In this document: one piece after another, positions 11,534 to 21,980 of the stretch | Position numbering within the stretch: position 1 is the first letter of the stretch | Layout of the letters: every line of letters begins with the position of its first letter | DNA from: a bacterium | GTDB taxonomy: Bacteria > Hinthialibacterota > Hinthialibacteria > Hinthialibacterales > Hinthialibacteraceae | Reading direction: 5' to 3' | DNA length: 25,533 nt | Assembly (NCBI GenBank): GCA_041946805.1 | Contig: JBHGBC010000085.1 | Location: 1 to 25,533, forward strand | Position numbers and translations under genes: made by a program | Notes under the pieces: generated by a model | The model's database searches: none | What the model saw: only the letters and a program-made list of their open reading frames with translations | What the model was told of the DNA's origin: nothing

Positions 11534-13105
11534 ATGGGAACTCTGGGCATGCTGGCCAAACTGTTTCGGATCAAATCGGTCGACCGGATTCTCTCGGATT
11601 CCGCCCGCACGGAGGGCCAACTCAAACGGGCGCTGACCTGGGTGGATCTGGTCCTTTTCGGGATCGGCGCGATCATCGGCGCGGGCATCTTCGCCACCAT
11701 CGGGACCGCGGTCGCGGGTGACGGTTACCGCCCCGGCGCGGGTCCGGCGTTGATTCTCTCCTTCGGCCTCACCGCCATCGCCTGCGGATTTTCGGCCTTG
11801 TGTTACGCGGAGTTCGCCGCGTTAGTGCCCATCTCCGGCAGCGCCTACACCTATTCGTACGCCACCCTGGGCGAATGGATCGCGTGGATCATCGGCTGGG
11901 ACCTGATCATCGAATACGCGATCGGCAACGTGGCCGTGGCGATCAGTTGGAGCGGCTATTTCTGTGATCTTTTGGCGGGCTTCGGCATTCACTTTCCCCT
12001 CTGGATGGTCACCGACTACCGCACCGCGCTGCATCGCGGGGATGTCCTGCCGAACGCGCCGCATCTGTTAGGGGTGCCGATCGTCTTCAATCTTCCGGCG
12101 GTGGCGATCGTCGTGCTGTTGACCCTCCTGATCGTCATCGGCGTCAAGGAAAGTTCGCGCTTCAACGGCCTGATGGTCGCCTTGAAGCTGGCGGTGTTGT
12201 TTTTTTTCTGTTGCGTCGGATTCTTCTACATCCGGCCGGAGAATTACGTTCCCTTCGCACCCAATGGCTGGGCGGGGATCCAATCCGGCGCGGCGATCGT
12301 CTTCTTCGCCTTCATCGGTTTCGACGCCGTCTCGACGCTGGCGGAGGAAACCCGCACGCCGTCTTACGATCTACCCATGGGCATCATCGGCTCGCTGGTG
12401 ATCTGTTCGGTCATCTACATCTTGGTCTGCGCGGTCTTTTCCGGCATTGTGCCTTACGAAACCTTGAAATCCATGCTGGCGTCCGAAAAAGCCGAACCGC
12501 TGACCATGGCGTTCAAGTATGTTTCGGCCACGGATTCCGGAGGAAGGTTTTCGACAGGTTTTTTGAATATCGCCACGGCTGTCGTCGCGTTCGGCGCGGT
12601 GGTGGCCAACACGGCCGTGCTGCTGGTGTTTCAAGTCGGCCAGCCGCGGATCTTGTTTTCCATGTCCCGCGACGGCTTGTTGCCTCCCATCTTCATGTCG
12701 GTGCACAAACGCTTCCGGACGCCAGATTTCTCCATCATCGTCACCGGCGTCTTCGTGGCGTTTTTCGCCGCCTTCATGAGCATCGACGAGATGGTGGATT
12801 TGTGCAACATCGGCACCTTGTTCGCCTTCATCCTCGTCTGCGCCGGGGTGATGATCCTGCGGGTCCGCGAACCGGAGCGGAAACGGCCCTTCCGCGCGCC
12901 TTTCGGCTTTGTGGTGCCCATCCTCGGCATTCTATCCTGCATCACGTTAATGATGGGTCTGCCGTGGCTCACGTGGAAACGCTTCCTGATCTGGCTCGTC
13001 ACCGGGTTGTTTATTTATTTTCTTTATGGCATCCGCCACAGCCGGCTGGAGACCGAGGAGAATGAATCGTTCACGGCCGTTCCCCCCGGGCCAGGCGGGC
13101 GTTGA
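11534..13105 (+). CDS. APC-family amino acid permease (cationic amino acid transporter-like)
   Basis: GIGAIIGAGIF, LCYAEFAALVPISGSAYTY, FFAFIGFDAVSTLAEE, MSRDGLLP, RPFRAP; many hydrophobic helices. Start 11534 or 11549. Confidence 0.93.
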   Translation: MGTLGMLAKLFRIKSVDRILSDSARTEGQLKRALTWVDLVLFGIGAIIGAGIFATIGTAVAGDGYRPGAGPALILSFGLTAIACGFSALCYAEFAALVPISGSAYTYSYATLGEWIAWIIGWDLIIEYAIGNVAVAISWSGYFCDLLAGFGIHFPLWMVTDYRTALHRGDVLPNAPHLLGVPIVFNLPAVAIVVLLTLLIVIGVKESSRFNGLMVALKLAVLFFFCCVGFFYIRPENYVPFAPNGWAGIQSGAAIVFFAFIGFDAVSTLAEETRTPSYDLPMGIIGSLVICSVIYILVCAVFSGIVPYETLKSMLASEKAEPLTMAFKYVSATDSGGRFSTGFLNIATAVVAFGAVVANTAVLLVFQVGQPRILFSMSRDGLLPPIFMSVHKRFRTPDFSIIVTGVFVAFFAAFMSIDEMVDLCNIGTLFAFILVCAGVMILRVREPERKRPFRAPFGFVVPILGILSCITLMMGLPWLTWKRFLIWLVTGLFIYFLYGIRHSRLETEENESFTAVPPGPGGR

Positions 13106-13901
13106 TTTCATCCAGCAAAGGCGGGACATCCGCGATCCCATCCACGACATAGTGCGCCCCGGCTTGTAACATCCGCGTGTAGGCCTGTTGCCGTTTGCGC
13201 TCCCGGACGGCGGGATCCATCACGGCAATTTCCTGCTCCGTCATGCCGAATTCGTTGCCGGTCAGGGCCAGGCCCACGCTCCACATCCCCGCGTTCAGAC
13301 CTTCGGCGATATCGGGCAGCGTGTCGCCCACCTTGACGAAAGCCTCCATGGGATAGATCTGCAGGTTCATGGCGTTTTGCAGGCACATCCAGGGAGCGGG
13401 ACGCCCCGCGGGAACCTGCGTGGCGCAGACGGAGGAATCCGGCTCGTAACCCCGGTCCTTCGCTTCCTTATACAAAATGTCCATCATTTCGCTGGTATAG
13501 CCCGTGGTGGAGCCGATCTTGAGGCCGCGCCGCCGGAAATCGCGGATCGCCTCGAGAGTGCCGGGGATCAGGTCCGCGTAATCCTTGAGGCAGGCGAGCT
13601 GCAGCGGCACGAAATCCTGGAACATACGTTCCACGTCTTCTTCCGTGCACGGACGTTTATGCATTTCGCGCCAGGTTTGGGCCACTTCGTCGATTTGCGA
13701 GATTTCCCGGATGTGGACTTTTTTATGCGCGCCCATCGGCTTGCGGGCCTGTTCAATGGTGATGGGAACCTGCCGCCGTTTGTACACCTCGATGAACACC
13801 ACCGCCGGCGCGAAGCAGCCGTAGTCCATGGTGGTTCCGGCCCAATCCAGAATGACCGCCTTCAAAGGCCCGCGGTAGGTGCGCTGGAATACGAAATCCA
13901 T
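13071..13901 (-). CDS. phnX: phosphonoacetaldehyde hydrolase (phosphonatase)
   Basis: Motif I DWAGTTMDYGCFAP, cap-domain PMGAHK (Schiff-base Lys region), GRPAPWM, KVGDT...EGLNAGMW, GNE, AGAHYV. GGAGG RBS. Confidence 0.96.
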   Translation of the reverse strand: MDFVFQRTYRGPLKAVILDWAGTTMDYGCFAPAVVFIEVYKRRQVPITIEQARKPMGAHKKVHIREISQIDEVAQTWREMHKRPCTEEDVERMFQDFVPLQLACLKDYADLIPGTLEAIRDFRRRGLKIGSTTGYTSEMMDILYKEAKDRGYEPDSSVCATQVPAGRPAPWMCLQNAMNLQIYPMEAFVKVGDTLPDIAEGLNAGMWSVGLALTGNEFGMTEQEIAVMDPAVRERKRQQAYTRMLQAGAHYVVDGIADVPPLLDEINARLARGERP

Positions 13902-13976
13902 CGATTCTCCTCCTTCCTTGGGAGTGTTTATTTGCCAACGTCCTTGGTCGATTCTTGTGTTACTTTTTCTCCGGTA

Positions 13977-14003
13977 CCCGCAGGGAGAGGGCCGGGGTGA
14001 GGG
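13977..14003 (-). repeat. boxC-like repeat between phnW and phnX
   Basis: CCCGCAGGGAGAGGGCCGGGGTGAGGG on the plus strand. Confidence 0.7.
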
Positions 14004-14076
14004 AATGCCACAGGGGTGGATCTTTGAGTCCGCCTTGAGCTCTTGGCCTACCCACTTTCAATCCCCTTATCCCCGC

Positions 14077-15207
14077 TTACAGCACCACGCCCATTTCATC
14101 GATTACCACCCGGATGGCCGCCAGCAGGGTCCGGATGTCGGCCTCGAAAATCCGCCCGATGTTCCCGATCCGGAAACAATTCGCGTTGCTGACCTTGCCG
14201 GGATAGATCACCTGATCCCGCTGGTTCAGCCGGCGGTAGAACTCCTCGAACGAGAATTTAGGGTGCTCCGGATACAGGTACGAAGTGATGATGTATCCCT
14301 GCCGCTCGCGGGGCAGATATTCCTGGAAGCCCATTTCGCTCATCCCCGCGGTCAACGTTTGATAATTCTTCTGATACCGCGCCGCCCGGCCTTCCACGCC
14401 ACCCTCGGCCTCCAGCTCCAGCAACGCCTGTTGGAACGCGAGGATGGCGTGCGTGGGCGGGGTGAAGCGGAACTGCCCGTTGCTCTCCAGCCCCTTCCAT
14501 TGGCCGAACAGGTCCAGGCTCAGGCTGCGGGCGTACCCTTCGGTCTTCAAGAACGGCTCTTTCCGCGCGAGGATGAACGAAAAGCCCGGCACGCCTTCGA
14601 TGCACTTGTTGGCGGAAGAGACCAGGTAGTCGATATGGCAGCGGGCCAGGTGGATGGGCACCGCCCCGAAGCTGCTCATGGCGTCCACAAAAAAGACGCG
14701 GCCCGCGCGCTGGACGATCCCGCCGATCGCTTGGATGGGATTCATGATGCCCGTGGTGGTTTCGCAGTGCACCACGGCAACATGGGTGATGGCGGGATCG
14801 CGTTTCAATGTCTCCTCGATCTGCTCCAAATCGGGGCAGGAGTCTTCGGGGTATTCCAACTTCATCACGCCGATTTTCAAAATCGAGGCGATTTTCGCGA
14901 TCCGGTGGCCGTACGCGCCGTTGATGATCACCAGGAGTTTGCCGTCCGGCGGGACCGTGGACGAGACGACCGCCTCGATGCCGAACGTGCCGCTGCCCTG
15001 CATGAGCACCGCTTCGTACCCCGCGTCTCCCACATTACCCAGGATCAGCAATTTCTGGCGGATGAACCGCACGGTCTCGATGAACTCCGTGTCCCGCGAA
15101 CCCAGATCGCGCAACAGGGCTTGCTTGACGGTCCGGCTCGTGGTCAACGGGCCGGGAGTGAATAGAATTTTGTCTTTCCAACCGGGCCAAGCTTTGGGTG
15201 AATTCAT
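14077..15207 (-). CDS. phnW: 2-aminoethylphosphonate:pyruvate transaminase
   Basis: [39 protein letters not shown]-Lys motif [36 protein letters not shown] 15207 with GAGG upstream (the ORF track uses TTG 15228). Adjacent to phnX. Confidence 0.96.
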
Positions 15208-15340
15208 ACCAATGGCCTCGCTGTTCAAAATACAACCTGTTGAATCGCTGAATCATAATGACAAAAGATCCCGCGTGGTAGGATGAGGCGGCGCAATGAT
15301 CTGCCTTCCCAGGGCGAAAGCCTGGGGCTATTTTAAATGA

Positions 15341-15551
15341 AGTTCATCCGGTAAGTGCATACCTAACAAGATATAATCGATTCCATTTTCGCCGGGATGA
15401 TGGCTGACGCCAAGGTTTGCCCCTGCTAAAAAACCCTCACCCTAGCCCTCTCCCAGGGGGAGAGGGAATTATGAGGGGTGGTTTTCATCGATCATTTCGA
15501 AGAGATGCGAAACGGCGATCTGAAAAAAAGCGCGCACCGGCCATATGAACC
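15341..15551 (+). mobile_element. 211-bp MITE-like element, copy B (complete, decayed)
   Basis: Left end AGTTCATCCGGTAAGTGCATACCT, right end GCGCGCACCGGCCATATGAACC. Same length and internal order as copy A. Flanks TTAAATGA (15333-15340) and TTGAATGG (15552-15559). Confidence 0.7.
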
Positions 15552-15649
15552 TTGAATGGGCTGCCGGCGAGTAACAATCCGTCGTGCATGGTGGGCAAGC
15601 ATCCCGTTTTGAAAAAATCCAATCCGATCCTGGGTGTAAACACAAACAC

Positions 15650-17038
15650 ATGGATCCACATCAAAGAATTCCCGAAAAATCCAGTCAGGAAATCGTTCCG
15701 TCGGAAGGTGATGTCAACCATTCCCCGTTCCGCGAGGAATGGCTCCAGAATCATATCGGCGCGGAAACGCGGCATTGGCTCGAGGAAGACGCGAAATATT
15801 TTCTTCATCAATCCCTCTCCACGCCCTGTCTGAACGTCCTTCAACATTGCGAGGGAATTTACCTGGAAGACCTGGAGGGCCGCCGGTACATGGATTTCCA
15901 CGGCAACAATGTCCACCAGGCGGGTTTTGCCCATCCACGCGTAATCCAGGCCATCAAGGACCAGCTGGACGAGTTGACCTTCTGCACCCGCCGTTATACC
16001 AATATATCCGCCATTCAGCTGGCCAAGAAATTGACGGAACTCGCCCCGGGGGACCTCAACAAAGTCTTGTTCGCTCCCGGGGGGACCTCCGCGATCGGCA
16101 TGGCGTTGAAACTGGCGCGCGCCGCGACCGGCCGGTTTAAAACCATTTCAATGTGGGATTCGTTCCACGGCGCCTCCCTGGACGCCATCTCGATCGGCGG
16201 CGAGGCCTTGTTCCGCCAGGGCATCGGCCCCCTGCTGCCCGGAACCGAGCACGTGCCGCCTCCGGACCCGGCGCATTGCCCGTGGGGTTGCGCGGGAACC
16301 TGCAACCTGAAGTGCGCGGAATACATCGAGTATGTGCTCGAAAAAGAGGGCGATACCGCCGCCGTGATCGCCGAAACGGTGCGCAGCACGCCGTATATCC
16401 CCCCGCCGGACTATTGGCGCGTGGTCCGGGAGGCATGCGACCGCCACGGCGCGCTGCTCATTTTGGACGAGATACCCCATTGCCTCGGCCGCACGGGCAA
16501 AATGTTTACATTTGAACATTATGGCATCATCCCGGACATGGTGGTGATCGGCAAGGGACTGGGCGGGGCGGTGTTTCCCCTGGCGGCCTTGATCGCGCGC
16601 GAATCGTTGGATTGCGTCCCCGAGCGGGCGCTGGGGCATTACACGCATGAGAAGAATCCCGTGGCTTGCGCGGCCGCCCTGGCGTTGATCGAGGTGTTGG
16701 AGAGCGAAAATCTGTTGGAAAACGCCCAACGGATGGGAGATTACGCCCTGGAACGGATGCATGCCATGAAGGAACGGCATCCGCTCATCGGCGATGTCCG
16801 GGGTCTGGGCCTCTTGATGGGCATCGAACTGGTGAAGGACCGCACCACCCGGGAACGGGCCACCCAGGAGGCCGAGCAGGTGATGTACGCCGCCTTGGCC
16901 AAGGGACTCAGTTTCAAGGTGACCATGGGGAACATCCTCACCCTCACTCCGCCGCTGACCATCACCCGGCCGCAGTTGGATACGGCGTTCGATATTCTCG
17001 AGGATTGCCTTTCGGAAATCGAACCAAAAAGAAAGTGA
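15650..17038 (+). CDS. pbfA: (R)-1-hydroxy-2-aminoethylphosphonate ammonia-lyase (class III PLP fold)
   Basis: N-terminal SEGDVN...DAKYFLHQSLSTPCL, MDFHGNNVHQ, WDSFHGASLDAISIGGE, PLP-Lys GKGLGG, LGHYTHEKNP, GLSFKV; divergent from phnW-phnX. Start ATG 15650 or 15584. Confidence 0.85.
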   Translation: MDPHQRIPEKSSQEIVPSEGDVNHSPFREEWLQNHIGAETRHWLEEDAKYFLHQSLSTPCLNVLQHCEGIYLEDLEGRRYMDFHGNNVHQAGFAHPRVIQAIKDQLDELTFCTRRYTNISAIQLAKKLTELAPGDLNKVLFAPGGTSAIGMALKLARAATGRFKTISMWDSFHGASLDAISIGGEALFRQGIGPLLPGTEHVPPPDPAHCPWGCAGTCNLKCAEYIEYVLEKEGDTAAVIAETVRSTPYIPPPDYWRVVREACDRHGALLILDEIPHCLGRTGKMFTFEHYGIIPDMVVIGKGLGGAVFPLAALIARESLDCVPERALGHYTHEKNPVACAAALALIEVLESENLLENAQRMGDYALERMHAMKERHPLIGDVRGLGLLMGIELVKDRTTRERATQEAEQVMYAALAKGLSFKVTMGNILTLTPPLTITRPQLDTAFDILEDCLSEIEPKRK

Positions 17039-17046
17039 CAGTAAAC

Positions 17047-17171
17047 GTAGGAAACGCCGGATGGGGTAGCGCGGAGCGTGTACCCCATCCAAGCGTAACC
17101 CATCAAAACAGCCTCAATGACAAATCAAATGTCTCGGCAAGAAGCAGGGGCACGTTGCAACGTGCCCCTAC
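17047..17171. repeat. two GTAG/CTAC-type REP-like hairpins
   Basis: GGATGGGGTA...TACCCCATCC (17059-17090) and AGGGGCACGTTGCAACGTGCCCCTAC (17146-17171). Confidence 0.75.
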
Positions 17172-17295
17172 GAAAAACAACTGGCAGGGAATCAGGATCA
17201 TGACCCATGGAAGGATAATGTGTTTCTCTTGTTTGATAGACATTGATGTATAATCCCCCATTCATACCCAGACACTCCAACGAGGAGCACCGCGG

Positions 17296-18057
17296 ATGAC
17301 ATGTAAAATCAAGGCGATTACTTTCGACCTGTGGGACACGCTGTTCGCCGATGACACGGACGAGCCCAAGCGCCAACAAGCCGGGCTTCCCCCCAAACTG
17401 ATCGAACGGCGCGAGTTGGTCCATCAATACCTGCAACGCCACGCGCCCGTTGCCCGGGACTTGGTGGACGCCGCCTATAACGCCGCCGACGCCGCCTTCA
17501 ACAAGGTGTGGCACGAGCACTATGCCACCTGGACCGTGCGGGAGCGGCTCTCCATCGTGCTCAAGGCCTTGAAGCGCGAATTGCCGGACGAGGAATTCGC
17601 CGAGTTGATCCGCCTGCACGAAGAGATGGAACTGCGCTTCCGCCCGGATCCCGCCCCCGGCGCGGGCGAGGCTCTTCGGACCCTCAAGCAACGCTACAAG
17701 CTGGGAGTCATCTCGGACGCCATCTTCACGCCGGGCCGCGCCCTGCGGCAGTTGCTCGACGGGGAGGGATGGCTCGGGCTGTTCGACTCGCTGGTCTTTT
17801 CCGATGAAGTGGGATGCTCCAAGCCCCGGCCGCTGGTGTTCGAAACAGCCGCGGCGCAGCTGGGAGCCGAACTCAGCGAAATCGTCCACATCGGCGACCG
17901 GGAATCGAACGATGTGGACGGCCCCCACGCCGTTGGCGCGCGGGCGGTTCTCTTCACGGGCATCAAGGACCGCGGCAGCGCGAACAGCCGGGCGGACGCG
18001 GTGTGCGATGACTTTGCCCGGCTGTCCGCGGTTCTGGAGCGGATGGATCAATCGTGA
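17296..18057 (+). CDS. HAD-superfamily hydrolase (subfamily IA-like)
   Basis: Motif I FDLWDTL, motif II VISD, motif III SKP, motif IV HIGDRESND. GAGGAG RBS at 17282-17287; TATAAT at 17249-17254. Confidence 0.9.
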   Translation: MTCKIKAITFDLWDTLFADDTDEPKRQQAGLPPKLIERRELVHQYLQRHAPVARDLVDAAYNAADAAFNKVWHEHYATWTVRERLSIVLKALKRELPDEEFAELIRLHEEMELRFRPDPAPGAGEALRTLKQRYKLGVISDAIFTPGRALRQLLDGEGWLGLFDSLVFSDEVGCSKPRPLVFETAAAQLGAELSEIVHIGDRESNDVDGPHAVGARAVLFTGIKDRGSANSRADAVCDDFARLSAVLERMDQS

Positions 18058-18085
18058 GTGGGGAGGAAGCCGGGACTCATTTGTC

Positions 18086-18228
18086 AGAATCAGGATGGCC
18101 AGGATGAACAAGATGATCAGGATGGGACGAACTATGTTTCGCTGATCCATCCCGCGGAGGCTTTGGTACATCCGTTATGTACGTGTTATCCACTAGACGG
18201 CAGGGATGGATACGAAAGTCCGCCCCTA
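18086..18228. repeat. CAGGAT 9-bp-period repeat plus CTAC-ended REP-like hairpin
   Basis: AGAATCAGGATGGCCAGGATGAACAAGATGATCAGGATGG (18086-18125); AGGGATGGA...TCCGCCCCTAC (about 18202-18229). Confidence 0.65.
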
Positions 18229-18383
18229 CACAATTCCCTCATCCTGGCCTTTTACCAGAGGGAGATTGGAATGGTGGAAGTCTTTACCCTGTACGTTGGA
18301 TACCGATGATAACCACGGAATTTACCCATTGATTCAACGATTCAATCTTCCTGGATATTTCAAGATCACGGAGATAAAAAACC

Positions 18384-19244
18384 ATGTCTGATTACCACTT
18401 TTTGATCATCGACGGATATTCCAAAAAAAGCCGGGACGATTTGGAAACCGCCGGCATGTGCCTGGCCTGCACCCTGTACGTCAAGTTGCTGGAGCGCTAC
18501 TGCCCGGGGTGCGCCTACGACATCCTGCTGCCTACCGATCCGGGCGTGGAAATGCCCAAGCCGCCGGAGCTGGAAGCCTATAGCGGGATCATCTGGACCG
18601 GCTGCAACCTGACCATCTACGATCTCACCCACTCCAGCGTGGTGAAACAGATCCAGCTGGCCCAGGAGGCGTATGAAGTGGGCGTTCCCAGTTTCGGCAG
18701 CTGCTGGGGAATCCAGATGGCGGCCGCGGCGGCCGGGGGTGAAGTGCGGGCCAATCCCAAGGGGCGTGAAATGGGCATCGCCCGCAAGATCCGGTTGACT
18801 CCGGAAGGGCGCCAGCATCCCATGTACGAGGGCAAACCGCCGGTCTTCAATGGCTTCATCAGCCATGAGGATCACATCACCAAGCTCCCCCCCGGCGGCG
18901 TGCTGCTGGCCAGCAACGATTTCACGCACGTGCAGGCGATCTCCGTCACGCACAAAAAGGGGACCTTTTGGGGCGTGCAGTATCACCCCGAGTATGACCT
19001 GCACGAAATGGCGCGGCTGATCGTCGCCCGCGAAAGCAAATTGGTACCCGCCGGTTTCTTCACGGGCCACGACGACCTGGTCCAGTATGTCGACAAGCTG
19101 GAAATCCTCTTCGCGAATCCGGACCGCAAAGACTTGCGCTGGCAGCTGGACATCGACGACGACGTGCTGTCCGATGCCATCCGGCAATGCGAATTCGCCA
19201 ACTGGATCAAAAACCTGGTGGTTCCTTATGTGGAGAGTAAGTGA
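18384..19244 (+). CDS. stand-alone class I glutamine amidotransferase-like protein (putative amidohydrolase)
   Basis: Nucleophile elbow FGSCWGIQ and GVQYHPE supply the Cys-His-Glu triad; GREMGIARKI. GGAG RBS; no synthase partner nearby. Confidence 0.9.
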   Translation: MSDYHFLIIDGYSKKSRDDLETAGMCLACTLYVKLLERYCPGCAYDILLPTDPGVEMPKPPELEAYSGIIWTGCNLTIYDLTHSSVVKQIQLAQEAYEVGVPSFGSCWGIQMAAAAAGGEVRANPKGREMGIARKIRLTPEGRQHPMYEGKPPVFNGFISHEDHITKLPPGGVLLASNDFTHVQAISVTHKKGTFWGVQYHPEYDLHEMARLIVARESKLVPAGFFTGHDDLVQYVDKLEILFANPDRKDLRWQLDIDDDVLSDAIRQCEFANWIKNLVVPYVESK

Positions 19245-19316
19245 GATAAGCACCCAATTCACGGCAACTATTGACACGAATGCGGAGCAAGGATGCATGG
19301 CGCCCTTTCAGGGCGG

Positions 19317-19349
19317 CCCTCACCCTGCCCCTCTCCCGGAGGGAGAGGG
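19317..19349 (+). repeat. boxC-like repeat
   Basis: CCCTCACCCTGCCCCTCTCCCGGAGGGAGAGGG. Confidence 0.8.
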
Positions 19350-19472
19350 AATGAAGAAGGGTTCCTCCATGCGCCTTCCACGAAACAAGGCCGGAGAAAG
19401 TTCTGCGTTCGTTAAAGCAGTAACAATTTACAAAAGAATAAAAAACGGCGGGGGTGCGTTGCGGCATGCTCC

Positions 19473-20795
19473 TTATTCCCCCCTCCCCCCCTTTCCCACG
19501 GGAACATAATTCCACTTCACGGCCAGCAGCGCCCCGCTCAGGAACGCGCAGACCACCAGCAGATAAAACAGAGCGTCCCAGCCGTAGGCGTTTTTCACCG
19601 TGGCCACGATGTACCCGGACAGCATCTGGCCCATGGAGCCCACGCCGTTGATGATCCCCGCGGCCGTGGCCGCTCCCCGCTGCGAACCTTCATCCTGGGC
19701 GCCCGCGCCGGTCATCAGGGTGTCCGGGCCATAGGTCAGAAACCCGATGAGGCCGATGCCGATGGCGTTGGCCAGATGGCCCCAGCCCGCGATGGTGGGA
19801 TGAACCAAAAACGCCAAGCCCAATCCCCACAAAAACAAGGCCCCCACGGGGAAGCGGCGCGATTGAAACAACTTGTCCGACATATACCCGGCCGCGACCG
19901 CCCCCGTGAAACCCACCAGTTCGAAAACCGTGGACGTGTAACCCGCCTCTTCCCCGCTGTAGCCCAACCGCTCGGCCATGTACAAGGGCAGCCAGAACAG
20001 AAAGGCGTAGCGCGTCATTTTCAAAAAGAAATACATCAGTGAAATGATCCATACCGCCGGCTTGGAGACGATTTCACGCAGGATGGAGATCGATGTATGC
20101 GGCGCGGGGGGGGCCGCCGGTCCGGAATCCGGGGAACGGTTGCCCGACTCGTCCGCCTCGTCATCCTCGGGAAAATCAGGCAATCCGGCGTCGGATGGTT
20201 TGTTCCGGGTCACCAACAAATAACCGGCTGCGATCAGCAACAGCAGCAGGGCGGGCGCCCAAAATCCCCGCCGCCAGCCATACGCCGTGAAGAGGGGCAT
20301 GCGGTACACGCAATAGGTGGCCAGGGCCGTGGCGATGGCCCCCCCCAGCACGTAATTGGTCCCCCACCAGGCCATGACGATCCCCCGCTCTTTCCGGCGG
20401 AACCAGCAGGCCATGTTCTTCACGAGCCCCGACCAGCCCGTGGACTGCCCCGCGCCGTTCAGCCCGCACAGGAACATGACCAGTAAAAATTCCGTCCCCG
20501 TGAAACCCAGCAGGAGATTGGCCGCGGCCGACAGCGCCAAACCGGTCCCCACGATGATCCGCGGGCCGTACCGGTCGGACAGCACCCCGCTGATAAACTG
20601 TCCCACGCAGTACATGAGACTGTACACGAAGATATAATTGGCGTATTGCCAATCCGTCAGTCCCCATTCCTTCAATTCGGGGGCGATGACGCTCAGGTTT
20701 TTGCGGCAGAGATAAAACCCGGCGTAGCCCAGCCAGGTGATGATAAAAATCCGGTACCGCCAGATCACTTGCCGTGGGGTCAGTTCATCCGTCAT
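19473..20795 (-). CDS. MFS transporter, organophosphate:Pi antiporter (GlpT/UhpT/AepP-like) family
   Basis: TM1 GYAGFYLCRKN, GQFISGVLSDR, NGAGQSTGW, WFRRKERG, RYAFLFWLP, AAGIINGVG; two 6-TM halves joined by a hydrophilic linker. AAAGGAG RBS. Confidence 0.9.
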   Translation of the reverse strand: MTDELTPRQVIWRYRIFIITWLGYAGFYLCRKNLSVIAPELKEWGLTDWQYANYIFVYSLMYCVGQFISGVLSDRYGPRIIVGTGLALSAAANLLLGFTGTEFLLVMFLCGLNGAGQSTGWSGLVKNMACWFRRKERGIVMAWWGTNYVLGGAIATALATYCVYRMPLFTAYGWRRGFWAPALLLLLIAAGYLLVTRNKPSDAGLPDFPEDDEADESGNRSPDSGPAAPPAPHTSISILREIVSKPAVWIISLMYFFLKMTRYAFLFWLPLYMAERLGYSGEEAGYTSTVFELVGFTGAVAAGYMSDKLFQSRRFPVGALFLWGLGLAFLVHPTIAGWGHLANAIGIGLIGFLTYGPDTLMTGAGAQDEGSQRGAATAAGIINGVGSMGQMLSGYIVATVKNAYGWDALFYLLVVCAFLSGALLAVKWNYVPVGKGGRGE

Positions 20796-20933
20796 GGAAT
20801 TCTCCTTTCGGTTTCGTGCAAAATATCATGAGGGGAAGGGGTTATCCAGTATGGATGGGATAGTGGAATCCTGCCGGGGTTATTGATTCACCAGGATGTT
20901 AGCGGGTGATTACCATCCGTCCGGAACGTACGT

Positions 20934-21668
20934 ATGCCGATTTTAATCTGTGACGCCGTGGAGTGGGACGAGGCGCACCTTGCCCTCGATTACCCCAACG
21001 ATGTGGGGCAGTGGGTTATCGATGCCTTTGGCGGAGGATCCTCCCGCTTTATCAACTGGAAGGTCCAACGCGAATCCGCGCCCCCGCCGGGCCCGTTCGA
21101 TGGCGTGGTGGTCGGCGGATCGCCCGCCTCCGCCATTGATCCGGACGATTGGATCCGCCGGCTGGTGCAACTCATCCGCCAGTGGGCGGACGCGTGCGTG
21201 CCCTTGCTGGGCATTTGTTTCGGCCATCAGCTCATCGCTCACGCGTTGGGCGGCCGGGTGATCCGGAATCCCCGGGGATGGGAAGTGGCGAACAGCAGCG
21301 TCGATCTGACTCCCATGGGCCGCCGGGATCCCCTCTTCGACGGTCTGCCTTCTCCTCTCGAGGTCATGCAAACCCACCGGGATATCGTGGAAAGCCTGCC
21401 GCCGGGGGCGGAATGCCTGGCCACGAGTCCGCTGTGCCCGATTCAATCCTTCCGCCTCGGCCCATCCATCCGGACGGTGCAGTTCCATCCCGAGTACACG
21501 GTGGACCACATGCGCTTCGTGATGCTGCCCCGCCGGGACCGGCTCGAAGCCGCCGGCATCGACGTGGAGGCCAAACTGACCGTGCTCCGCCCGGCTCCCG
21601 GAAACCGGCAAGTGTTACGCAATTTTGAAGCGCACTTCGTTGCCCGCGGCGATGGACGAGATGGATGA
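20934..21668 (+). CDS. second stand-alone class I glutamine amidotransferase-like protein
   Basis: GGSP oxyanion strand, LGICFGHQ, GWE, VQFHPE; 244 aa with no ATP-pyrophosphatase domain. Confidence 0.9.
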   Translation: MPILICDAVEWDEAHLALDYPNDVGQWVIDAFGGGSSRFINWKVQRESAPPPGPFDGVVVGGSPASAIDPDDWIRRLVQLIRQWADACVPLLGICFGHQLIAHALGGRVIRNPRGWEVANSSVDLTPMGRRDPLFDGLPSPLEVMQTHRDIVESLPPGAECLATSPLCPIQSFRLGPSIRTVQFHPEYTVDHMRFVMLPRRDRLEAAGIDVEAKLTVLRPAPGNRQVLRNFEAHFVARGDGRDG

Positions 21669-21761
21669 CCGGCCGCTACTTTCTCCGTTCCCGCCCAGTT
21701 GAACTTCGCGAAGTCCCCTGATCCACATTGAAAACTTGTCTTCAAGGATGACAGGATAGTT

Positions 21762-21876
21762 GGTTCATCCGATAAGTGCGTACATTTTGCTGGGAGCGTG
21801 ACCGGACATCGATTAGACGGGTAGGAGAGAGCCACCTGAAATCCCCTCTCCCTCTGGGAGAGGGCCAGGGTAAGGG
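21762..21876 (-). mobile_element. MITE-like element, partial inverted copy E
   Basis: Begins GGTTCATCCGATAAGTGCGTAC. An inverted boxC-like repeat lies about 80 bp inside (21843-21876), matching the right-end spacing in copy A. Opposite IR not found. Confidence 0.6.
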
Positions 21877-21980
21877 AAAGCCTTTCCTCGGCGCCGATCC
21901 CTTCGGCGGGTTCCTATACGCCGGGCGGGCAGGCCAAGGAAAAGGGGTTGATCATTTGGGATTTGGGGATTGGAGGATTC

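Follow-up and report, generated by a model that had tools for sequence, protein, structure and literature searches.

Why should a phosphatase-like protein, two glutamine amidotransferase (GATase)-like proteins and an organophosphate:phosphate antiporter (OPA)-family member of the major facilitator superfamily (MFS) be encoded among genes for the catabolism of 2-aminoethylphosphonate (AEP)? The question is raised by a 25,533-nt contig (JBHGBC010000085.1, hereafter the window) of a bacterium of the phylum Hinthialibacterota (assembly GCA_041946805.1), in which phnX, phnW and pbfA are accompanied by genes for a HAD hydrolase, GATase-1, an OPA-family MFS protein and GATase-2. An earlier interpretation made from the letters alone (the sequence-only reading) had placed these seven genes, and all of them were confirmed in coordinates and family. 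It had proposed that the four extra genes form an undescribed upper pathway that unmasks esterified, N-acylated or gamma-glutamylated aminophosphonates and delivers AEP or (R)-hydroxy-AEP (HAEP) to PhnW, PbfA and PhnX. The evidence described below points elsewhere: the extra genes probably belong to a route in which phosphoethanolamine is imported, dephosphorylated and converted to glycine, separate from the co-clustered AEP/HAEP genes.

The neighbourhoods of GATase-1 homologues were compared in 86 GTDB loci (the best 80 of 289 plus six non-duplicate loci from relatives); many are short, 41 being at least 15 kb long, and presence of a gene means presence within the fetched stretch. The HAD gene was found in 76 loci, an iron-containing alcohol dehydrogenase (Fe-ADH) gene in 47, an aldehyde dehydrogenase (ALDH) gene in 35 and an aldehyde ferredoxin oxidoreductase (AOR) gene in 10 (ALDH or AOR in 45), the OPA MFS gene in 26 and the gene of a glutamine synthetase (GS)-like ligase in 22; phnX occurred in 8 and any phn gene in 10, leaving 76 loci, and 35 of the 41 longer ones, with no phn gene. 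A second, independent set, the best 80 of 553 metagenome loci retrieved with HAD as query, contained GATase-1 in 72, Fe-ADH in 40, ALDH in 27, MFS in 25, the ligase (counted at a 38% identity threshold) in 6 and a sphingosine-1-phosphate lyase (SPL)-like gene in 2, along with pbfA in 8, phnX in 7, phnW in 6 and any phn gene in 9. All six non-phn genes occur together in 12 of the 86 GTDB loci, in orders that vary from MFS-HAD-GATase-Fe-ADH-ALDH with the ligase (Acidobacteria) to AOR-ligase-Fe-ADH-HAD-GATase-MFS (Myxococcota) and ligase-ALDH-Fe-ADH-HAD-GATase-MFS (Calditrichota), and six of the nine six-gene genomes searched (G077, G079, G083, G090, G092 and G098) gave no phnX or pbfA match.

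Whole-genome searches covered 50 GATase-1 genomes drawn from the 80 best GTDB loci, hand-picked to span lineages and of unreported completeness, to which G000 and G225 were added for the counts of pbfA, N-formylglutamate amidohydrolase (FGase) and EutB (n=52). With phnX in 23 of 50 of these genomes (27 without a match), pbfA in 24 of 52 (28 without) and the low phn counts of both locus sets given above, GATase-1 does not reside mainly with phnWX or phnWYA genes. In the 35 genomes of the window's own phylum, HAD and GATase-1 were found in the same 13, all of them ligase-positive, and in none of the 18 ligase-negative ones; the other four ligase-positive genomes carry a GATase-2 homologue (three) or are 68% complete (one). 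These genomes are kin and hence not independent, for which reason Fisher values for this co-occurrence are overstated.

Such distributions bear directly on the proposal that the HAD and GATases unmask aminophosphonates for PhnW, PbfA and PhnX. The linkage on which it was built is real and recurs, and gamma-glutamyl chemistry was the right idea; moreover, pbfA, HAD and GATase-1 are co-oriented in the window, the planctomycete HAD-GATase-1 pair is co-oriented with MFS-phnW-pbfA-phnX in genomes where no ligase was found, and nearly half of the genomes searched encode pbfA. The unmasking step itself is nevertheless improbable, considering that phn genes are missing from most HAD-GATase-1 loci and from about half of the genomes, that complete six-gene operons exist without phnX, that 13 of the phylum's 25 phnX-positive genomes have neither HAD nor GATase-1, that relatives without GATase-1 often carry pbfA as well, and that a HAD, GATase or ligase gene lay near phnX-unlinked pbfA in 0 of 11 stretches.

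The main partners of the extra genes were missed by the sequence-only reading because they lie outside the window, on contig C254 of the same genome (35636-39784), where an Fe-ADH and an ALDH (35636-38406) are clustered with a GS-like ligase (38417-39784) that is 47-50% identical to the ligases of loci L243, L244 and L248. The best PDB matches of the ligase are 11ZS (E 3e-136) and 5DM3 (3e-117), other GS-family proteins scoring 1e-53 or weaker, and the protein falls within the ETAGA/GlnA4 subfamily. It shares 49-51% identity with the GS of a plasmid operon (L243) with the layout RpiR-FGase-TRAP-GS-Fe-ADH, which is the arrangement described for the ethanolamine operon that phosphoethanolamine induces in Phaeobacter (PMC10132767, Fig. 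5). The C254 trio displays 85-87% DNA identity to copies located directly after the MFS gene in a same-genus genome. Fe-ADH/ALDH genes adjoin the MFS gene in G001 and G014, and do so via GATase-2 in G010, where the order is ligase-ALDH-Fe-ADH-GATase-2 followed by divergent MFS-phnW-phnX-pbfA; in G014 the MFS gene is divergent from Fe-ADH-ALDH-ligase and HAD follows phnX. Altogether, these layouts indicate that the four extra genes are part of one supercluster that has been repeatedly reshuffled in the family.

Both GATases are predicted to hydrolyse a gamma-glutamyl amide. GATase-1 (18384..19244, plus strand; PF00117) is predicted to be a gamma-Glu-Gly hydrolase of the class I GATase fold, possibly with transferase activity too; its family numbers 3780 sequence clusters with E 1e-20 or better. 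Its residues C107, H201, E203, Q111 and S160-H161-D163 are invariant in 42 of 42 homologues, it carries a conserved C-terminal extension, and its model (pLDDT 97) comes closest in fold to gamma-glutamyl peptidase 1 of Arabidopsis (GGP1; TM 0.70/0.81). GATase-2 (20934..21668, plus strand; PF00117), a predicted second gamma-glutamyl hydrolase, contains the motifs ICFG, THRD and QFHPE. The two proteins thus have the Cys-His-Glu triad, the glutamyl-binding Gln and the SHxD-type motif of gamma-glutamyl hydrolases. No FGase-type gamma-Glu-Gly amidohydrolase was found in any of the 86 GATase-1 loci, and the window's genome has one unlinked PF05013 gene (on C29); the GATases likely occupy the FGase slot of the ethanolamine gamma-glutamylation pathway. 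In four spirochaete genomes GATase-1 stands beside Fe-ADH and/or ALDH/AOR genes and ligase genes with no HAD match, and three of the four gave no match to FGase or a C26 peptidase, so that GATase-1 is the remaining candidate for the hydrolysis there. Complementarity between GATase-1 and FGase across genomes was also considered, and PF05013 proved too broad to decide it (21/52).

The HAD gene (17296..18057, plus strand; PF00702) encodes a HAD-IA hydrolase predicted to be a phosphoethanolamine phosphatase. Phosphatase motifs are present, namely the nucleophile Asp (D11), motif II S140, motif III K176 and motif IV D201/D206, and D11, W13, D14, S140, K176, D201 and D206 are invariant in 35 of 35 aligned homologues; the model (pLDDT 96.7) matches the fold of HAD-IA proteins at no more than 25% identity. 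Three alphaproteobacteria-like proteins (P0121-P0123) combine the HAD with a YfbR-like HD domain in a single chain. A natural HAD-GATase fusion was sought and discarded, none of five long matches being one (one resembles a frameshifted read-through and three are the YfbR-like fusions, the evidence being weak).

From the gene identities, catalytic motifs, co-occurrence and gene order observed, we infer the substrates of the following route. The MFS protein would import phosphoethanolamine, a membrane-lipid headgroup, from which the HAD would remove the phosphate; the C254 ligase would then use ATP to convert ethanolamine to gamma-glutamyl-ethanolamide, the Fe-ADH and subsequently the ALDH would carry out two oxidations, and the GATases would split gamma-glutamyl-glycine to yield glycine, the predicted products being phosphate, glycine and recycled glutamate. 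This sequence of glutamylation, two oxidations and hydrolysis to glycine and glutamate is that of the described gamma-glutamylation route (PMC6529630).

Phosphoethanolamine is indicated as the substrate by SPL-like, ethanolamine permease and phosphodiesterase neighbours. SPL is an enzyme whose product is phosphoethanolamine. Genes for SPL-like proteins (E 1.7e-193 to 3MAD and 5e-182 to 5K1R) stand two positions ahead of HAD-GATase-1 in 2 of the 80 metagenome loci (L272 and L292) and immediately precede the ligase gene in all four SAR324-like genomes that carry HAD-GATase-1. An ethanolamine permease gene (score 381 against a cut-off of 381.75) lies upstream of the ligase in L163, and two HAD-less loci carry a glycerophosphodiesterase, which would free ethanolamine directly. 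EutBC was rejected as an alternative sink for ethanolamine, EutB being found in 0 of 52 genomes with a positive Escherichia coli control. Glycine cleavage-like genes, as read from translations, were noticed within several kilobases of the ligase gene in three spirochaetes (L164, L166 and L168) and are consistent with a glycine product. The L272:3-5700 and L292:1-5601 operon comprises genes for the SPL-like lyase, an FGGY kinase, HAD, GATase-1 and a conserved gene of unassigned kind, and may make phosphoethanolamine from an amino-polyol. Genes of the histidinol-phosphatase families (HisJ PHP or HisN IMPase type) flank HAD-GATase-1 in L045/L049/L068/L080, L050-L055, L091, L101 and L328, and an IMPase-family gene lies upstream of the ligase in an Arthrobacter plasmid locus (L248).

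It could be argued that the same glutamylation logic acts on another amino-alcohol phosphate or on a hydroxy-aminophosphonate, such as aminopropanol phosphate, serinol phosphate or HAEP, given that phosphoethanolamine is deduced from neighbours alone, that the SPL-like gene of L272/L292 is paired with a sugar kinase gene, that histidinol-phosphatase-family and threonine aldolase genes stand beside some copies, and that a gene for a methylmalonate semialdehyde dehydrogenase (MMSDH)-like enzyme is frequent in the planctomycete operon. We regard this as unlikely, as operons that show the published ethanolamine gene order carry ligases of the same subfamily and the permease, SPL-like and glycerophosphodiesterase neighbours all indicate ethanolamine.

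A number of observations weigh against the phosphoethanolamine-to-glycine route. In 36 of the 86 loci none of Fe-ADH, ALDH, AOR and ligase occurs in the fetched stretch. A ligase match at E 1e-70 was obtained in 34 of the 50 GATase-1 genomes and is missing from 16, including all eight planctomycetes G067-G074; it is also missing from the planctomycete G225, and in these nine planctomycete genomes PF00120 retrieved GlnA/GSIII-type proteins only. Even so, HAD, GATase-1 and Fe-ADH are under purifying selection in planctomycetes (dN/dS 0.04-0.21 in five loci, with synonymous sites near saturation), and this ligase-less clade is the one where HAD-GATase-1 mostly share an operon with phnW-pbfA-phnX, the tightest phn linkage seen. 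The hydrolase slot is in some cases doubly filled, by GATase-2 in G000 and G010, by a PuuD-like protein in three SAR324-like loci and by FGase in L165; a second hydrolase is often part of the ligase operon even though HAD-GATase-1 is retained at another site. Motif I of the HAD reads FDLWD, with Trp13 replacing the usual acid/base Asp in 70 of 70 rows and the invariant Asp14 adjoining it, and no close characterised or solved relative of this protein was found. Lastly, the Fe-ADH and ALDH are only 37-54% identical to those of reference ethanolamine operons, and the identity of the ligase match 5DM3 with Csal_0679 of Chromohalobacter is presumptive. The ligase-less genomes and second hydrolases leave room for a transferase GATase-1, a moonlighting GS or, less likely, a phosphonate-linked role in the planctomycete clade. 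That clade is narrow, judging from the presence of GATase-1 in just 2 of 121 genomes of the planctomycete order. A class III aminotransferase was dismissed as a general substitute for the ligase, a close match being found in 1 of 9 planctomycete genomes.

The first of these possibilities holds that GATase-1 transfers the gamma-glutamyl group of glutamine or gamma-Glu-Gly to ethanolamine released by the HAD, the ligase being optional. It fits the lack of a ligase match in the nine planctomycetes and eight others of the 50 genomes and the continued constraint on the planctomycete genes, and it agrees with the identical distributions of HAD and GATase-1 in the phylum, even on separate contigs (G014), with the frequent second hydrolase in the ligase operon and with the conserved C-terminal extension of GATase-1. 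Nonetheless it is unlikely: GATase-1 is also encoded in ligase operons where neither HAD nor another hydrolase was found, its nearest structural relatives are named peptidases or hydrolases, the completeness of the ligase-negative genomes is unreported, and a housekeeping GS could act instead, as all four GS isoforms of Mycobacterium tuberculosis use monoamines (PMC13740247). A broader and similarly unlikely version is that HAD and GATase-1 constitute a widespread intracellular phosphoethanolamine module working without an ATP-dependent ligase, in which the gamma-glutamyl group would be recycled from gamma-Glu-Gly (or glutamine) onto ethanolamine and one OPA antiporter would serve AEP/HAEP too, making the locus a joint island for the salvage of phospholipid and phosphonolipid headgroups.

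If the extra genes serve phosphoethanolamine, their association with phn genes calls for its own explanation. The neighbourhood analysis that had been suggested as a test of the unmasking proposal showed that the HAD, GATase and MFS genes do recur near phnW/phnX/pbfA, in the window's own phylum, in the planctomycete clade and in one Arenicellales record; phn-linked GATase-1 appears in three separate places on a FastTree phylogeny with an unresolved base (the window's genus, the planctomycete clade and the Arenicellales record, with phnW-phnY). The sequence-only reading had cautioned that linkage could be fortuitous, through rearrangement at repeats, and features compatible with this were indeed seen: the strands are mixed (phnX, phnW and MFS minus; pbfA, HAD, GATase-1 and GATase-2 plus), dispersed repeats occupy most intergenic gaps, GATase-2 is missing from a same-genus genome and the modules are dispersed in most relatives. 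Chance is, however, very improbable, since phnX occurs in 8 of the 86 GATase-1 loci against about 0.10 expected under random placement and the divergent geometry of GATase-2 and MFS is repeated in G010 beside phnW-phnX-pbfA.

GATase-2 was not found in any of the 86 GATase-1 loci nor in the same-genus genome G001, and a chance insertion was contemplated on these grounds; this was ruled out by homologues (47-51% identity) found as the first gene of GATase-2-Fe-ADH-(ALDH)-ligase operons in G010, G003 and G028, the G010 copy being divergent from the same MFS gene as in the window. The window copy appears to have stayed beside the MFS gene when Fe-ADH-ALDH-ligase moved to C254. Four remoter homologues (42-45%) lie behind a NagB/PIG-L fusion gene, and a small tree splits them from the window copy (96/98).

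No other gene is present between the seven from phnX to GATase-2, the successive gaps measuring 175, 355, 257, 326, 228 and 138 nt. A dispersed intergenic repeat with a GGGAGAGGG hairpin (15335..15479, no strand) has 667 genome matches on 208 contigs, with further copies at 13968-14007, 18236-18281, 19317-19362 and 21841-21880; the hairpin at 19313-19356 has 636 genome matches of at least 25 nt across 196 contigs. One error-free 4713-nt contig of run X1 covers 17145-21857, from HAD through GATase-2, and is not independent support for the assembly because X1 is possibly its source; the gene order from phnX to MFS also occurs in a same-genus genome (L023) and in a metagenome contig (L249). The sole RNA run contained 6% of the words and its contigs derive from a relative at ~88-96% identity, hence it is uninformative on transcription here. 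Elsewhere in the window, a 15-nt tandem repeat (four copies, 463-537) encodes EQTTL repeats at the N-terminus of ORF 436-1401.

The transporter offers a link between the two modules. The MFS gene (19473..20795, minus strand) encodes an OPA-family antiporter (TIGR00881, 235 bits, under the cut-off of 408) predicted to import phosphoethanolamine and/or AEP. It belongs to a 13-member clade (99/99) with HAD/GATase/Fe-ADH/ligase neighbours in 13 of 13 and phn neighbours in 9 of 13 members, a pattern which fits a shared importer. The modules have likely been co-clustered for the reason that AEP and phosphoethanolamine are look-alike lipid headgroups, maybe sharing this antiporter, and not by feeding PhnX. 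A second OPA MFS gene, 45% identical to the acidobacterial type, was noticed on contig C287 (4070-8895) of the window's genome with phosphodiesterase-like, DegT-like and oxidoreductase genes, and the MFS proteins of L028-L036 have an insertion of ~130 aa without a Pfam match. An APC amino-acid permease gene (11534-13105) and phnX lie on opposite strands and share 35 nt at the 3' end of phnX; the permease scores 82 on TIGR00908 against a cut-off of 382, is BcaP-like rather than an ethanolamine permease, and is kept at phnX only within the genus (1 of 86 loci).

The phosphonate half of the locus is an already known AEP/HAEP catabolic module, its three clustered proteins all scoring above curated cut-offs. 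The phosphonoacetaldehyde hydrolase gene phnX (13071..13901, minus strand) scores 339 bits on TIGR01422 against a cut-off of 220 and encodes the motif DWAGT at residue 19. The AEP:pyruvate transaminase gene phnW (14077..15228, minus strand; TIGR02326 486 vs 401, NF010006 491 vs 296) probably starts at the ATG at 15207, and the (R)-HAEP ammonia-lyase gene pbfA (15584..17038, plus strand; NF049939 721 vs 525) probably at an ATG near 15650, as deduced from the beginning of the HMM match at residue 40. In the window phnW-phnX are divergent from pbfA, while in several relatives the genes are co-oriented.

Other phn loci showed further variants. In planctomycete-like phn operons, MtmB-like methyltransferase genes (PF05369) come immediately behind pbfA or phnW (L039:1913-4701, L251:377-3198 and L225:705-2075, the last also close to corrinoid and trimethylamine methyltransferase genes); none of the three ORFs checked has an in-frame stop, which argues against pyrrolysine, and they possibly represent an anaerobic demethylation of N-methyl-AEP, a counterpart to PbfB/C/D. 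A gene for an MMSDH-like CoA-acylating aldehyde dehydrogenase stands beside phnX/phnW in L028, L031, L032, L035, L137, L138, L141, L214, L216, L218 and L225, and the window's genome has one at C135:32287-33759; three of three tested exceed the TIGR01722 cut-off, and the enzyme may convert PhnX-derived acetaldehyde to acetyl-CoA. A NagD-like HAD-IIA gene is located upstream of phnW in three relatives (L141:12057-12866, L211 and L212), two of them without the HAD-GATase-1 pair, and the operons of L028-L036 (8 loci) include, between phnX/MMSDH and HAD, a protein of ~260 aa with a prepilin-type N-methylation motif. At L329-L331 and L333 pbfA is apart from phnX, the Verrucomicrobiota copies being followed by a second class III aminotransferase gene, and a SAR324-like genome without phnX has a divergent pair of pbfA-like genes.

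Few organic P/N compounds are released from membranes as commonly as phosphoethanolamine. Its marine utilization proceeds through an extracellular phosphatase and ethanolamine uptake, and a further PhoX/PhoB-independent route has been reported (PMC10132767). If the route proposed here is correct, testable functions would be provided for a GATase family with many members annotated as "GMP synthase" and for its partner HAD, and a six-gene import-and-dephosphorylate variant would exist in Acidobacteria, Myxococcota, Calditrichota, Planctomycetota, Verrucomicrobiota, spirochaetes, SAR324 and the window's phylum. For enzymology, the lineages without a ligase raise a concrete question, and the case cautions that genes beside phnWX are not automatically phosphonate enzymes. 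The OPA + HAD + GATase form of the ethanolamine gamma-glutamylation pathway, with its likely extension to phosphoethanolamine, is likely new. No such variant was seen in the literature searched on the ethanolamine route (including PMC9397018, PMC13740247 and PMC11335346), subscription journals and supplements being mostly outside this scope; the word "amidotransferase" is absent from the available main text of PMC8154272, PMC12366243, PMC10590968 and PMC10574752, the supplementary Pbf gene-cluster tables of which could bear on novelty; and a literature search on amidotransferases with phnW/phnX gave a single biosynthesis paper with an unrelated mention.

Compared with known systems, the three phosphonate genes of the window show no difference from the described PhnWX + PbfA pathway, in which pbfA accompanies 13.49% of 1186 phnWX clusters (PMC8154272). 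Precedent for AEP import is given by AepP, a GlpT-like AEP permease of Pseudomonas putida BIRD-1 (PMC8316502), which like the window MFS is an OPA-family protein encoded beside phnWX (PPUBIRD1_3129); the NCBIfam hits of the window include no AepP model, and the window MFS clade is separate from the one beside phnX in Acidobacteria. As to the GATases, Arabidopsis GGP1 shares with them the stand-alone class I GATase fold acting on gamma-glutamyl amides, at 16-18% identity and with different substrates, and in aniline systems the GAT-like hydrolases AtdA2/NpaA2 are likewise partnered with a GS-like ligase (PMC11335346); the conserved C-terminal extension sets GATase-1 apart from GGP1 and AtdA2/NpaA2.

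The closest counterparts are the routes for ethanolamine. With the GlnA4 route of Streptomyces coelicolor (SCO1611-SCO1615), the later steps of which are themselves just predicted, the proposed pathway shares the logic of ligase, dehydrogenase, aldehyde dehydrogenase and gamma-Glu-Gly hydrolase (PMC6529630, PMC9397018), and an actinobacterial operon with that layout (L248) encodes a ligase and an ALDH sharing 47% identity with the C254 proteins; an Fe-ADH takes the place of the SDR, and a phosphatase and a phosphate antiporter are added. With the ethanolamine pathway of Chromohalobacter, Agrobacterium and Phaeobacter (ETAGA, GETADH, GAADDH, GGAH and the TRAP transporter EtoVWX; PMC10132767) it has in common the ligase (49-51%), the Fe-ADH (~41%) and the ALDH, clustered with one another on C254, as well as the predicted end products glycine and glutamate. 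In contrast, the operon contains no ethanolamine TRAP transporter or permease for free ethanolamine, its place being taken by the OPA antiporter; extracellular dephosphorylation by PhoX is replaced by a HAD without an obvious signal peptide, and the FGase-type hydrolase by one or two class I GATases, while an AOR stands in for the ALDH in 10 of the 86 loci and the ligase is missing in some lineages.

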